Source: Carcharhinus longimanus
Taxonomy: Eukaryota
Length of the DNA stretch: 64,000 bases
Direction of reading: 5' to 3'
Assembly (NCBI GenBank): GCA_030264375.1
Contig: JASCQW010000109.1
Location: 30,413,004 to 30,477,003, forward strand
Shown: positions 1,916-46,853 of the stretch, one piece after another
How positions within the stretch are numbered: position 1 is the stretch's first letter
Layout of the letters: each line of letters starts with the position of its first letter
Position numbers and translations under genes: made by a program
Notes under the pieces: model-generated
What the model saw: only the letters and a program-made list of their open reading frames with translations
Told to the model about the DNA's origin: nothing
The model's database searches: none

Positions 1916-4900
1916 GAAAGAAAGGCCAACCTCTTAGTGATAGAAATAACTTCTCATATATCATCAACTCAAATGGGCTCACAGGATTGAAAACTTACAA
2001 ATGCTCATTATGGCCTTTATACTTAATGATCGATGGGCTCTCCCAGAACTCAGAACTAGTAATTTTATTCTAGCTAGGCTATGGCCTGGAAAATGTGAAC
2101 CTAAAGTGGAATTATTCTTAGACGAATGAAGTGAGGAGTCTGTTGGGAAAAGGGGCTGAATGGAATCAACACTTGCTTCATTTTCCCAATGGCTACTCAG
2201 GTTGTAGTTCACTGTCCGAGTTCTTTTTCTTCACTTTGAAGCTTTATCTTTGCGCAATCATTCCCTGCCACCATGGGCTGCATTTTCACCTTACAGGTGG
2301 GTAGCTCAAGTTTGTAAAATTCCTGGCTCAGTGCATCTGCCTCAGGAAAATTTTCCCCAAATGGTGTAACTTTCATTCAGGGGGCTGGGGTGGTGAGGGG
2401 GTGGGGAGGATTATAGGGGGGCGGTCAGCTGTGTGGAGTGGAGTTGGGCCCATCATCCTCAGATGCAGATGGGAGATGGCCATAGGGGCTGTCAAGTGTC
2501 AAAGCTGCTGGTGAAAATGCATACCTTTGTTCTCTAGAACATAGTCCTAGTGGTGCTGCTAAATATTAGGCATTCTAGTCCTTGCCCCTGATATCCTCTC
2601 AGCCTCCCATGCCCCATTCATACTAACATATGCCTCTCCACTCATCCCCATGGCCCCGTAGAGCACCTATCCCAAGTTGGTGACAATACTTGCCTCCACC
2701 ATCCATCATCCTTTGCCCTTATACCTGCCATGCCAACTCATCCAGTATCCAGCCTGCCCAGAGCTCAGAGCCTATTCTGGGATGAAATTCCAAAACAGTT
2801 TTGTTTCTACGACAGACTCCTCCATATAAAATCCATGAAATCATCTGTAAATATAATACAATTAAATTCCTTGATGTACTTAGTCCTTTATAAAAACAAA
2901 TACTTGTATTCACAACCCATATCAAAGACAACAATAGTTTAACAACAGCTGTCATTAAAACTGTAAACTTACAAACTCCACTATGATAATAACAGATTGT
3001 GGAAGCAATCAAGCAGTATTAATGCTACAATGATAACATATAAAATTATATCAACAAACATCGATTGAAATTGCTAGAAATGACTTTTTTCACTCTCACA
3101 GACACAAGCAGTTTTCCCCCAAAATTTAAAGAGCACTGGATTTAAACAACTTCACAGCTTGAGAGTTTTACATATCTGATCTGCCTTTCGTAAGAGTTGA
3201 TATCTCTGCCACAAAGTCATGGAACACAGTCCTGTAGATTGAGGCATTTCCTAGAGCAAAAAATGGGGTTATTTATTCAACACACTGAGTTTCAATGGCC
3301 CAGCCAATTTATAATTCACACCTTTGCACTTCACAGCCCACCCATCCCCTTTCCCCTACCGGCAAAATGGGATCTGCAGAAAATGAGGGCAGGACTTCTG
3401 GATCCAGGTCCCATCCACTATTTCAAAAGATCCCCAGAGTCTTCATGGCTTTGTGAAGATCCAACCCCGTATTTCAATCCAAAATGGTGCAAAAGGATAG
3501 AACTGGAGATAATCTTTATACCCTTATGTAGACTTTTATTTACAAAGTCTTATATCTCCATGACATTATTAGTCTTTTTCTATTTAAAGACGCACAATTG
3601 AATTCCCAGTTAATGCCAACCACCTGCAAACAATTAAACACAACTGATGTACAATTAACACTTGGGTGAATAAATCCCAATTTAATTCAAACATGTTATT
3701 TATTTAACAGTTATTGAATTAACAGAAGCGTCTATCATTGGAAAAGAAACAAAAATGAACTTGCGCACGTGGAGATTTCTTTCATCAATTATCCATTCCA
3801 GTGAACTTGACTTTGCTGGTAATTTTCCCCCATATAAATGTTTAACCTTCTCCACATCGAATGAAATAAAGTCAAAGAAATTATAGCTCAACAAAGAAGG
3901 AGACTATCAACATATTTAATCAGTTAGTGCAAGGTCCTCAACTGGGATTAGTTGTAAGTACAAGTTCCTTCTTCAAATACCCTGAAAGCTGCCATATTGT
4001 ACCTGGTGCCACTGTGTCAATGGAGTAGAAATTCATTATGGTTCAATGGACCAGAGGCAACAGACTCATTAGTAGAGCTTCATTCTGGGTTCTCTGTCTT
4101 GCTGGTAGAGCTTGATATAGTTAGGAACAGTAATATAGTCGGAGCCAGCAAATTCTGTCATTGGATTCCCTTAAACATGCATTTTGGGCCCTTTCTAATG
4201 GTGGATCCAACACTTGTTTAAGTCAGCAATTTGGAGCATCTGAAAATCTACAAATATTAATATGGCTTTGCAAGTATTTCATGCATACTTATGGCATTGC
4301 CCTGCAAAATAGTCATTTTTACACAAGAAGGAAAAAAGTCTGCTCTGTGGGTTGCTGTTTGGAGTCGTTCCGTGAAACAGATGTGGATTATCCACTGCTT
4401 TGACTGTTGCAACAGTAAATACATTCTTTATATATATTTGAAAAAAAAAATCTTCCAAAACACAAAGCTGAAAACTATGAAAATACTTATTGACATACTT
4501 CAAAAAAAGCAGGATTTCCAATTTTTGCTTTTGTTCACTTGGGACACAGCTAGAATCAATCAAAATCCTTTCAAGACATTCTGTGCAACAAACTTGAATC
4601 AAATCAAAGTACTACCCTGGTTTGTGCAACTTAGCTGAACTGTTTTTAAATTGAATCAATTATGAGTAAAGTGAAATGAATTGATCTGGATGTCTGTGAA
4701 GTAATCATGTTATTGTAAACAGTCCAAAGACTTTCTGCTGCTCTCCTCGGATTCATTTAAACACTCCCCTCCCTCTTAAAGGACTCAGTGAGCTGAAATT
4801 TACCTAGGTCTGTTTCAGGTCAGGACTCAGCACAGCACATGAGTGGAACAAGCTAACTTTATTAGTCAGGGGCCTTTGCAGAATGAAATCGGTGCCTGTT

Positions 4901-5194
4901 AATTTGAAGCCTCACTATTCAGAACTTTTAATACATGCTTGAGCTATTTAAAATTAGCCAGCAGCTCTTAAAACCTCACTTTGGCTACAGGCATCAAGCG
5001 ACATAACAGAAGAAGCAGATACTTGAAAGTTCTCTCTTATTACAGAAACTGTAATGGAATTCCAGATGGCAGTCAACCAAGAGGAGAGACCTCTTCTTCT
5101 CATCTAGTAGCAGGAAGTTTTTCCTCTGATTTTCTCAAAAGCACTACACAGAAGAGGCAGAGGCCACCACAGTTCAGATGAATGTCCTGACCAA

Positions 5195-27198: not shown

Positions 27199-28048
27199 TT
27201 TTTTTTATTTCAAAAATATACTTTATTCATAAAAAAACTCAATTAAACCATTGCAAACCTACACATCTAAACATTGCAACAGTGCAGAAAAAAAAACTTT
27301 TTATAGTCCTGAACAAAATTAGTCATTACATTTCAAAACTTAAAACTACATACATGCCTCAAATTTTACTGTGTGCCATTATTTCTCAGATTGACACACA
27401 GTTACGCAGGCCGAGGATATTCTGCACTTCCCGGTCCCTCGGTCTGCCTCCGTTAAAAGGCCTTAGAGTGTGGCCTTTCCTCATTGTGCCTTTGCGGCTG
27501 CTGCCCCAAGCTTCAGCACGTCCCACAGGACGTAGTCCTGGACCTTAGAATGTGCCAGTCTGCAACACTCGGTCGAGGACAGTGGNNNNNNNNNNTTCAA
27601 CTGGAAGATCAGCAAGTTTCAGGCGGACTAAAGTGCGTCCTTCGCCGAGTTGATGATCCTCCAGCAGCAGTTGATATTTGTCTCAGTGTGCGTCCCTGGA
27701 AACAGCCCATAGAGCAGAGTCCTGTGTCACCGAGCTGCTCAGGATGAACTTCGACAAATACCACTGCATCTCACTCCAGGCCTTCTTTGCAAAGGCACAT
27801 TCCACGAGGAGGTGTGCAACCATCTCATCAGCCCCACAGCCGCTTCGAGGGCAGCATGCGGTGATGTTGAGACCTTGAGCGTGCATAAAGGATCTGATGG
27901 GCAGTGCCCTTCTCACCACCAGCCAAGCCAGATTTTGGTGCTTGTTTGTGAGTTCTGGTGATGAGGCGTTCTGCCAGACGACAGTGACAGTCTGCTCAGG
28001 GAACCATCCGACAGGATCCGCCATCTCCTTTTCTCTCAGAGCCTCCAG
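27199..28048 (-). mobile_element. Tx1/L1-clade LINE 3' end with poly(A) and 12-bp TSD
   Basis: zf-RVT-like LAWLVVRRALPIRSF...CPRSGCGADEMVAHLLVECAFAKKAW; AATAAA plus A-tail at ~27200-27230; GGAGAAAGCCAT at 27188-27199 and 28049-28060. Confidence 0.85.
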
Positions 28049-28177
28049 GGAGAAAGCCATAACTATGGACAATGAACACAGGACAACTGTCATTATATCA
28101 CACAATTAGTTCCTGCCAGGACTGAAAGGAGCATTCACATCTCAGACAACCTTGGAGTCAGGTATCACCCATCATAG

Positions 28178-28806: not shown

Positions 28807-29130
28807 CAGCATAAAGAGGGGATAATGTTGTTTTGTGTTGTGTAAACAGCAGAAGAATGGACTATCTCGAGACAATCCTGTCTAGACCAGACCAAGGTAA
28901 GGAATTGCTAAGCATTAATGGCAACAGTATTTCTGTTTGTGATACTGTGATATGAATCATCATCAAAGTGGGTGACATCAGAGCAGGGACACTGCAGTCA
29001 GGAGAAGAAGTACAGAAACTGGCCATCTCCAGATTTAAGTCCACACTGATATTGATCAGATGTGTGGGTACTGTGAGTTTCAGTCAAACCGTAAAGGGGT
29101 TTGTGTTGTGAGGTTTTTTGTGTGATTGTA

Positions 29131-30043
29131 AGAGAGATGTGAGCATGCGTGTGAATGTGAGATAGATGTGAGTATGCGTGTGAATATGAGAGATGTGAGT
29201 ATGCGTGAGAATGTGAGAGAGATGTGAGCATGTGTGTGAATGTGAGAGAGATGTGAGCATGTGTGTGAATGTGAGAGAGATGTAAGCATGTGTGTGAATG
29301 TGAGAGAGATGTGAGTATGCGTGTGAATGTGAGAGAGATGTGAACATGTGTGTGAATGTGAGAGAGATGTGAACATGTATGTGAATGTGAGAGAGATGTG
29401 AGCATGCATGCGAATGTGAGAGAGATGTAAGCATGTGTGTGAATGTGAGAGAGATGGGAGCATGTGTGTGAATGTGAGAGAGATGTGAGTGTGCATGTGA
29501 ATGTGAGAGAGACATTTTAAGTTTACTTATTAGTGTCACAGTAGGCTTATGTTAACACTGCAATGAAGTTACTGTAAAAATCCCCTAGTCATCACACTCG
29601 GGCACCTATTCGGGTACATTGAGGGAGAATTTATCATGGCCAATGCACGTAACCAGCACATCTTTTAGGCTCTGGGAGGAAACTGGAGCACCCAAAGGAA
29701 ACTGATGCAGACATGGGGAAAATGTGCAAACTTCACACAGACAGTCCCCCAAGCTAGGAATTGAATCTGGGTCCCCACTACTGTGAGGCAGCAGTACTAA
29801 CCACTGTGCTACTGTGATGCCATGAGAGTGTGTGTGAATATGACAGAGAGGGACGTGTGTGTGTGTGTGAATGTGAGATAGAGGACCTAAGTGTGTGTGT
29901 ATTAATGTGAGAGAGACGTGAGCGTGTGTGTGAATGTGAGAGGGAGATGAGTGTGTGTGTGAATGCGAAAGGGAGAGATGTGAGCATATATGTTAATATG
30001 AGAGAGATGTGAGTGTGTGTGTGAATGTCAGATAGAGAGATGA
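29131..30043. repeat. 29-bp minisatellite (GATGTGAGCATGTGTGTGAATGTGAGAGA) split by a SINE
   Basis: Period 29 (units at 29221, 29250, 29279...); ~13 regular units to 29513, degenerate units 29823-30043. Confidence 0.9.
29514..29822 (-). mobile_element. tRNA-SINE, alternative-tail subtype, full length
   Basis: tRNA head at 29822 through to tail ...GCCTACTGTGACACTAATAAGTAAACTTAAA. Confidence 0.85.
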
Positions 30044-40220: not shown

Positions 40221-40839
40221 ATCAATATTCACCCTATCATACCATTGCAATTTTATCACTCTATCGCTAGACATTCCTGAACTGACTTAGCTCAATGGAA
40301 GATCTCCCAAATTCCTCAGGTATCTTACAACAATAATCTTTCAACCCTGATAACATCCTGGTGAATCAGCTTTGCATTTTTTCCATTATTTTCATATCCA
40401 GCCTTTACTGGTATGTCAAAATTGTACAAAACTGGTATGAAGTCATAGAGGATATGAGAGTAAGAAGGTAATATTGAACTTATACAAGATTTCCAACTTT
40501 AGTCAAAGTTCTTGTATAAGTTCAATGTTGCCTTCTTACTTTTATATTCTCTGTTCTATAACTTCTTTTATAAAAACAGACATTCCATTTTTAATGAACT
40601 TTCAATTTGTGATGCCATATTTAATCATGTCTGTACCCCATGCCAAGGTGTCCCTTCTCCATTTAAAATAATATTATTTATTGCAAGTTTCCATTCCCTA
40701 TTATTTCTAATTACTCGTGTTTTTCTTTATTAAACTCTATCTGCCACATATCAATCCAACCTGCAAACATAGCCATGTCCTCCTGCAGTTTTTACAATAT
40801 TCCTGTCATATTTTGTTGTATTCCTCCCATTCTATTCTA

Positions 40840-41500
40840 GGGGTGGCATGGTGGCATAGAACATAGAACATTACTGCGCAGTACAGGCCCTTTGCTGCTT
40901 CACAATGCCTGGGACACAGGTTCAATTCTGGCATTGGGTGACTGTCTATGTGGAGTTCATATGTTCTCCCCGTGTCTGTGTGGGTTTCTTCCAGGTGCAC
41001 TGGTTTCCTCCCACTGTCCAAAGATGTGCAGGTTAGGTTGATTAGTCATACTAAATTGACCCTTAGTGTCCCAAAGACGTGTAGGTTCGGTGGATTTTTT
41101 TTTTGTTTTTATTCCAATTCAATCCAATCAAATCCAATTCAGAGTCTCAACAAGTTGAGACATTCCCAATCCAAGCTGACAAGATAGGGATCTCACCTCC
41201 TGTCTTGGTCTTGATTTACATGATCCAAGTTGATTGGAGTAGGCATAGCTCCTCCTGCAAGGCTTGATCTCATTTGCATCGAGATGCTGCTTTTAGAAAT
41301 TGCTTCAAATGAAGCCAAAATGTAACCTAATGACTTCAATCAAGCACATCGATACTACACTTGATCTTAGCCAAAAGACCATGGGAAATGTGCGAGAATA
41401 TGGAGACAGGGTGGGAGGAGGGTAAAATGCCCTTTCAGAAAGTTGGTGTAGACTCGATGGACCAAATGGCCTCCTTCTGCATTGTTGGGTTCTATGTCTA
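40840..41500 (+). mobile_element. HE1-type SINE hosting two insertions (a ~36-bp antisense CR1-type tail at ~40857-40892 and the U2-headed element at 41095-41380)
   Basis: Head GGGGTGGCATGGTGGCA|...|TGCTGCTTCACAATGCC; body resumes GGTGGATT|...|GACCATGGGAAATG through to the TGGCCTCCTTCTGCA tail. Confidence 0.8.
41095..41380 (-). mobile_element. U2 snRNA-headed, poly(A)-tailed short retroposon (SINEU-like or U2-LINE chimera)
   Basis: Minus strand begins GGTCTTTTGGCTAAGATCAAGTGTAGTATC = U2 nt 11-40 (29/30; nt 15-40 perfect), then ~210 nt of non-U2 body, an 8-bp stem hairpin, ATTGG-like repeats, AATAAA and an A-tail. Confidence 0.8.
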
Positions 41501-46100: not shown

Positions 46101-46652
46101 TGCAATTCGACCCATCAATGTTTCCAATCATAGAAGCAGTGTAACATCCGGCCTGAGCTGCCGCTGGGACAATTTGGAAAGGAATGGGAAAAGGGTGTGG
46201 GACACATTCCGAGGAATGAGGGGAACGTAGTGTCTCTCTCTCTCTCCGCCTCGCTGTTCCTCTCGCCGGCTGCAACGTCAATGCGCTCCTCTCTCTTTCC
46301 TGTTCATGTGCCGAAGACGCTCGCCTGCCAACTGGGGGCCTTGTCATGGAAAGTAACTGAGTGGCAGTGCCACTGGCCACACGCCGGCTTTTCCATAATA
46401 GAACAACGTCAAGGGCAAGAACGCCCAGTGAAAATAGGAGCTGGCTGTGCTGGGGGTACTCCTTCCCTGAGGTGATCCTCAGTGGCTCGGGATCACTTAC
46501 CCCACCAACTCATCTGAGAAGTGAAATGCTACCAAACAGCTGATCAGCAACCCCCAACATACCCGATACGTGGCGTTTATATATATATATGTTAAAAAAC
46601 ATTGGAACCTATTATTTACACCTTTGCAACGTCCTCTTGTCTCACTGTTGTC

Positions 46653-46853
46653 GAAATTGATACTCTGGTTTGTGACAATCTATTTGAAATTGACACTCTA
46701 GTTTAAATGACAATCTATTTGAAATTTGCATCCTAGTTTAAATGACAATCTATTTGAAATTGGCAGCCTAGTTTAAATGACAATCTATTTGAAATTGGCA
46801 GCCTAGTTTAAATGGCAATCTATTTGAAATTTGCAGCCTAGTTTAAGTGACAA
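46653..46853. repeat. 35-bp tandem repeat, ~5.5 copies (TGACAATCTATTTGAAATTGGCAGCCTAGTTTAAA)
   Basis: Units start at 46673, 46708, 46743, 46778, 46813 and 46848; no spacers. Confidence 0.93.

Follow-up and report, generated by a model that had tools for sequence, protein, structure and literature searches.

A U2 snRNA-derived retroposon family and its candidate Tx1-clade LINE partner in the shark Carcharhinus longimanus

SINEs that carry an snRNA sequence at their head have been reported only from crocodilians, and the question of how such elements are transcribed without an internal promoter was left open in that work (Kojima, 2015, PMC4494074, in the portions available). The same portions give no LINE that shares the 3′ end of SINEU-1 (PMC4494074), and the U2 region around nt 37/38 is described as the insertion site of the retrotransposons Keno and Utopia in the available part of PMC4640811. 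Here we describe a U2-headed element from a shark, located in a window by which we mean the whole 64,000-nucleotide stretch of Carcharhinus longimanus DNA that was analysed (contig JASCQW010000109.1, positions 30,413,004 to 30,477,003). We judge it probable that this element is a 5′-truncated copy of a ~305-nt retroposon, termed family A below, that is made from U2 and present in several thousand copies; a Keno-like Tx1 LINE likely copies it in trans, and its transcription is possibly driven from source copies that lie within U2 genes.

The element interrupts an abundant repeat that we take to be a tRNA-derived, HE1-like SINE, relatives of which are numerous in the window and at other loci (Table 1; loci are cited by L numbers). 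The initial annotation had read U2 nt 15–40 on the minus strand at 41376–41351, and this match is indeed exact; the complete head (41380–41351) shares 29 of 30 positions with nt 11–40 of the U2 gene of this genome (E = 2e-8), and the Rfam match to U2 on this copy (E = 0.0015) lies under the gathering score. The pentamer repeats, AATAAA signal and A-tail that had been noted at the 3′ end are all present, and comparison with eight intact copies upholds the earlier reading of the host SINE straight across the insertion, with a 4-nt overlap with U2 nt 11–14 and no TSD, by strict test, on the window copy. Full copies of family A begin at U2 nt 1, and the window copy is 5′-truncated; it is otherwise identical to the family A consensus at 262 of 276 positions and carries deletions of 5 and 14 nt, the second of which has removed most of an internal second U2 piece. 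Its segment 41198–41114 is 77% identical to an older family, here called family B (77% across 88 nt, E = 4e-11). The whole copy is predicted to fold no better than its shuffles (z = −1.07). Elsewhere in the window, positions 40437–40564 form a near-perfect hairpin of ~90 nt to which several Rfam miRNA models match far below their gathering scores and which is possibly a small inverted-repeat transposon, and tandem repeats of 29 nt and 35 nt occupy 29078–29512 and 46638–46853, respectively.

Table 1. Coordinates of the U2-derived element, its host repeat and a separate LINE insertion in the window.
Feature	Positions	Strand	Basis
Host repeat, 5′ part; abundant SINE	40840..41096	+	Many related copies
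AATAAA signal (41113-41108) and A-tail; conserved across copies	41095..41113	-	Sequence
Pentamer repeats, equivalent to the duplication of family B immediately 5′ of the U2 Sm site, which the element does not reach	41114..41140	-	Alignments
Hairpin unit 2 with stem IIa/IIb-like segment, family B-derived (U2 nt ~24-90)	41141..41217	-	Alignment of window copy with family B
Hairpin unit 1, duplicated, family B-derived (remodelled U2 nt ~24-60)	41218..41270	-	Older-subfamily consensus with family B, 78% over 87 nt, E 2e-14
Remnant of internal second U2 5′ piece, with which the right monomer begins; 14-nt deletion in this copy	41271..41287	-	Consensus identical to U2 at 28/31
Spacer; 41350-41299 an imperfect antisense copy of the head with predicted fold-back; 5-nt deletion in this copy	41288..41350	-	Duplex prediction
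U2 snRNA head, nt 11-40, 5′-truncated; nt 11-14 overlap host sequence	41351..41380	-	Match to the genome's U2 gene; Rfam
Host repeat, 3′ part; resumes without duplication or loss	41377..41500	+	Intact copies, for example in L260
5′-truncated copy of the Tx1-clade LINE that is the candidate partner, a separate insertion 13 kb away	27218..28049	-	82% to the L159 copy; zf-RVT match inside

Family A is almost certainly a real amplified family and not a one-off event. A search with the body returned 2,923 candidates, of which the best 40 were scored and, save for the query itself and one tandem copy at 80%, proved 87–91% identical. Exact motif counts gave 1,064 matches for the U2/body junction, 908 for the 3′ end and 1,226 for the spacer, with none for the control, in agreement with the earlier proposal of a multi-copy family with one common junction. 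Capture-recapture, based on the overlap of the motif lists on one contig, places the copy number at ~3,200–5,100; this estimate is rough because assembly gaps break many copies. Of 57 fresh copies, 27 have the head in the same block, another 18 border on an assembly gap, and in the other 12 a truncated element meets unrelated DNA. The U2 head is present in 25 of the 29 best copies (2 of the 29 are broken by gaps) and, when copies are anchored on the spacer, in 26 of 30 by motif, the other four being shortened as judged by eye. Long distances between junction and tail were considered as signs of a longer parent element, a reading that was rejected when they resolved into separate copies split by assembly gaps. 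Mean identity to consensus is 90.5% for the younger set (n = 74) and 87% for the older (n = 16, including two misassigned young copies).

TSDs of 9–16 nt flank 11 of 47 fresh copies, against a null mean of 0.31 and maximum of 3, and are lacking by the strict test in the other 36; an earlier set had yielded 6 in 63 with a null of 0.5. The TSDs thus bear out the suggestion, made from the window alone, of a non-autonomous family spread by target-primed insertion. Tandem copies at L008 are separated by a TSD. At three loci (L019, L071 and L304), paired U2-derived elements stand head to head, 60–250 nt apart.

The family A consensus (~305 nt) consists of U2 nt 1–40, a 68-nt spacer, a second U2 piece corresponding to nt 4–33 and ~180 nt of hairpins, with the head identical to U2 at 39 of 40 positions (Table 1 gives the value for the second piece). 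The element is short (<500 nt) and non-coding, and has an AATAAA signal and a 3′ poly(A); internal duplications are common to its copies, and runs of T4–T5 occur inside it. A full copy passes Rfam's U2 gathering score, and Rfam finds only U2 in it. The initial annotation had regarded some 210 nt downstream of the head as non-U2 sequence, perhaps the remnant of a LINE that targets U2. Neither view survived: the body is U2-derived, its 3′ 200 nt coming from the older whole-U2 family B and its spacer being antisense to the head, and it shares nothing with the one Tx1 copy tested.

Family B was traced from a related repeat beside one family A copy, and comprises 3,018 candidates of ~210 nt that are 86% identical to its consensus. 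It aligns along U2 from nt 1 to ~180, with two internal duplications, and retains stems and an Sm-like site; the 3′ halves of two of its copies matched U2 better than all of 5,000 shuffles. This family is needed as a link because the tail of family A, when aligned directly to U2, gives a marginal score (p = 0.013). Family B matches the right part of family A in two alignments (78% over 87 nt and 77% over 107 nt); this part stops just before the Sm site, leaving family A without the 3′ half of U2, and also stands alone as a monomer (L159 and L206). The subfamilies form a series of step-wise gains that runs from family B through the monomer and an older dimer, the head of which ends at U2 nt 37, to a younger dimer. 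On these alignments, the body of family A descends from the older whole-U2 retroposon family B.

The spacer repeats the head imperfectly in antisense and is predicted to bury the U2 branch-point sequence. In duplex calculations, the consensus spacer pairs with U2 nt 1–40 at −32 kcal/mol in the younger and −37 kcal/mol in the older subfamily, values equalled by none of 1,000 shuffles, and pairing with three other U2 segments was not significant in the same test. When assessed by DNA alignment, the antisense match is significant in the older subfamily only (p = 0.002; p = 0.12 for the younger). The predicted probability that the branch-point motif is unpaired is 0.76 in U2 as against 0.09–0.20 in family A, and the arms of the consensus have strong predicted structure (z about −4); natural U2 is predicted to fold just as strongly, and family B would also bury the branch-point region, through its duplication. 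A fresh 5′ inversion at L307 has yielded antisense U2, which makes inversion during insertion a plausible origin of the spacer. Other sources of the spacer were tried and rejected: Rfam finds no other snRNA in it, alignments to sense U2 nt 38–111 (p = 0.36) and to a sense copy of family B (p = 0.30) are not significant, and neither spacer nor tail has a match better than E = 0.1 in the Tx1 copy of L159.

Mobilisation of family A in trans by a Tx1-clade LINE is very likely. A zf-RVT search gave 145 matches, and a near-full-length copy in L159 encodes two ZCCHC3-type RNA-binding domains in ORF1 and, at the start of ORF2, an APE endonuclease that is matched by Exo_endo_phos at E = 3.5e-4 (below cut-off) and by L1 endonuclease structures at E = 0.002. 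We take this layout of ORF1 RNA-binding domains, APE and zf-RVT to denote the Tx1 clade, with the target as added support. The only database protein matched by ORF1 is from another shark, Mustelus asterias (65% over 45% of the query), where it is annotated as PRDM7-like with KRAB and SET domains, either a gene-model artefact or a fusion with a LINE ORF1. The initial annotation had envisaged an autonomous partner of the Keno or Utopia type with the same 3′ end as the element. The Keno part of this proposal stands, in that a Tx1-clade LINE is found at the Keno site; Utopia falls away because the LINE has an APE endonuclease, and the common 3′ end did not materialise, the element and the one Tx1 copy tested having different tails.

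The association between element and LINE is also visible in their positions. An exact pattern of LINE tail followed by U2 head has 17 matches, 14 of them family A, three family B and none a true U2, and of 30 unselected LINE tails three have a family A copy in the same orientation no more than 35 nt downstream, which by our reckoning would happen by chance at about one tail in 25,000. Reading by eye, we found the same target reused by element and LINE at L175, L176, L180 and L185; at L175 and L180 the TSD of the LINE takes in the beginning of the element head. Of ten informative linkers between LINE tail and element, one recurred under a strict test and several more did so by eye. Separately, at L018/L116/L202/L211 and at L074/L119 the tails of element and LINE precede near-same positions of two other repeats, a hint of common hot spots.

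Both partners are found within U2, at the Keno site. At L247, L248 and L103, U2 nt 38 follows the LINE tail immediately, and the LINE 3′ end at L247 belongs to the same group as the partner LINE; family A tails abut U2 nt 38/39 at L249–L251, two of these loci reading U2 nt 1–40, body, A-tail and then U2 from nt 38 onward. Most LINE copies are dispersed, with two exact U2-flanked matches against 306 exact tails (counted with slightly different patterns), and a U2 gene follows none of 30 unselected LINE tails; the specificity of the LINE for U2 is therefore relaxed. Tx1 flanks weakly resemble U2 nt 39–45 (rank test, p = 4e-5). Element flanks gave mixed results and in general are unlike U2: they are not enriched for likeness to U2 nt 1–30 (p = 0.63) and, with imperfect parsing of tails, score p = 0.99 in a rank test.

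These observations suggest how the family may be expressed. A monomer that landed in a U2 gene at its Keno site would receive U2 nt 1–37 as its head together with the upstream RNA polymerase II promoter, 5′ inversion during insertion may have supplied the antisense arm, fold-back would hide the branch-point sequence so that the RNA could be tolerated, and AATAAA would end the element transcript. Because the older head ends at nt 37 and tails occur at the Keno site, insertion into a U2 gene is the probable source of both head and promoter. As the initial annotation had also proposed transcription from a U2 promoter, the reading towards which we lean, if only slightly, is one it shares: source copies that are transcribed from the promoters of the U2 genes they invaded. 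Transcripts from such copies would be expected to bear a 3′ trailer of U2 nt 38 onward followed by an A-run. A trailer of 7–10 nt from nt 38 and a second A-run appears in 3 of 108 unselected tails and in none of the 57 fresh copies; a looser trailer word has a background of 0.9%, or about one expected in 108. No promoter-linked source copy was present among the three loci that match a U2 promoter query, which hold an intact U2, U2 nt 1–14 followed by another insert, and no U2, respectively; that the query has only three matches suggests that U2 arrays are collapsed in the assembly. L249 and L251 have no match to the promoter sequences tested.

Two of the loci met in this search have peculiarities of their own. 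In L249, a U2-headed copy that continues into U2 nt 38–188 is immediately preceded by a full 5S rRNA copy (1969–2087, minus strand), possibly making a 5S-U2 chimera with a Pol III promoter. L255 (minus strand, ~1500–1940 from the end) reads U2 promoter and U2 nt 1–14, then an antisense processed mRNA copy, and is an mRNA retrocopy inserted in a U2 gene; the mRNA is presumably ribosomal protein S18-like.

A first alternative, which we think unlikely, keeps the same family and the Tx1 motor and has the element transcribed by read-through, be it from an upstream Tx1, from introns or from a 5S or tRNA promoter, with U2 heads acquired by template switching to U2 snRNA. Such a route to the heads was proposed for crocodilian SINEU and argued in the available portions of Kojima (2015, PMC4494074). 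The frequent position of family A directly behind Tx1 tails, the 5S copy in L249, the longer U2 pieces newly added in L223 and L064, which reach nt 49–52, and the U2 piece that heads a truncated Tx1 in L092/L156 would all be at home under read-through and switching. However, U2 nt 1 is the first position of full copies and the DNA upstream of it is unrelated, with no common 5′ extension seen, the end of the older head coincides with the Keno site, and three element tails run into U2 nt 38/39. The loci L223, L064 and L092/L156 together amount to repeated addition of heads.

It is very improbable that the copies derive by retrocopying from a functional host RNA, a remodelled U2 variant with its own gene, and not from a selfish element. 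The step-wise succession of subfamilies is typical of SINEs, family A has lost the 3′ half of U2 and carries a poly(A) signal, and its working sequence is predicted to be masked; these points outweigh for us the whole-U2 span of family B with its stems and Sm-like site, the strong predicted structure of the consensus arms and the spread of the sequence, 38–59% of sampled family words occurring in sequencing runs of six organisms (eight studies). No RNA run is listed among the runs that contain these words; six runs guessed to be RNA contain 21–28% of them and give no evidence of expression. Least credible is an accumulation of independent U2 chimeras, each the product of a template switch to the 3′ end of a LINE, or a Keno/Utopia LINE reduced by deletion: the junction does lie at the Keno site and U2 pieces do join truncated Tx1, but a single junction recurs in 1,064 exact copies, none of 12 truncated copies has LINE sequence extending the body upstream, the tested Tx1 shows no similarity and the body is itself U2-derived.

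The reading that we prefer, a U2-made family moved by a Tx1 LINE and fed by copies inside U2 genes, can be widened into a more tentative proposal. Sharks, independently of crocodilians, may have evolved promoter-less SINEs made entirely of U2, with source genes renewed by homing to the Keno site via a relaxed Tx1 LINE and with antisense self-masking of the branch point sparing splicing; this we hold as a possibility short of our favoured account. A second origin in a shark, together with copies at a fixed U2 site and a candidate motor, makes the promoter question for snRNA-headed SINEs testable, and the predicted masking of the branch point suggests a constraint on how a spliceosomal RNA can be parasitised. 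Since a full family A copy passes the Rfam gathering score, thousands of U2 matches in such genomes are mobile elements, a point that bears on snRNA annotation and on cytogenetics with U2 probes. Other U2 loci were noted along the way. On three small contigs whose flanks are nearly identical (L046, L047 and L048), a variant U2 lacking part of the 3′ stem is preceded by a tRNA-like stretch; U5 and U2 genes are linked in L034, a tandem unit of ~1,045 nt, and in L032; and the divergent U2 types of L032 and L033, on small contigs, may be foreign DNA.

Family A is apparently undescribed so far. In the openly accessible literature searched, we found no such family outside crocodilians, sharks included, and the available parts of PMC5786205, PMC5381603, PMC7922186 and PMC13343379 describe no shark family of this kind. 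Elements of the SINEU kind are not confined to crocodilians: family A, in a shark, has the U2 head, the short poly(A) form, the amplification as a unit and a target choice common to a Tx1-clade LINE that define SINEU.

As far as the available portions of PMC4494074 describe it, SINEU-1 resembles family A in its U2 head, poly(A), step-wise snRNA heads, dimers, lack of a LINE with a common 3′ end and thousands of copies, whereas family A differs, compared by description, in its U2-derived body, its spacer antisense to the head and its shark host. Family B is closer to SINEU-3, likewise a remodelled whole U2 with an A-tail and tandem copies with a TSD between them (L008), but has internal duplications where SINEU-3 has a deletion of ~50 nt; no Mariner target was noticed, and some family A copies lie at the Keno site of U2 itself (PMC4494074, same portions). 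The chimeras of snRNA and LINE formed by template switching and the tailless U2 pseudogenes covered there also join a 5′ U2 fragment by reverse transcription; such chimeras, however, arise independently and have varied junctions, whereas family A amplifies one junction more than 1,000-fold (PMC4494074, same portions). In the sections available of PMC4494074 and PMC4640811, Keno and Tx1-Mar resemble the partner LINE, which has an APE endonuclease and some copies that end at U2 nt 38; in contrast to Keno, most copies of the partner are dispersed and not confined to U2 genes. Utopia has the same insertion site in U2 but uses a restriction-like endonuclease, in contrast to the APE found here (PMC4640811, available part). 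In its way of working, family A is like crocodilian SINEU with Tx1-Mar.
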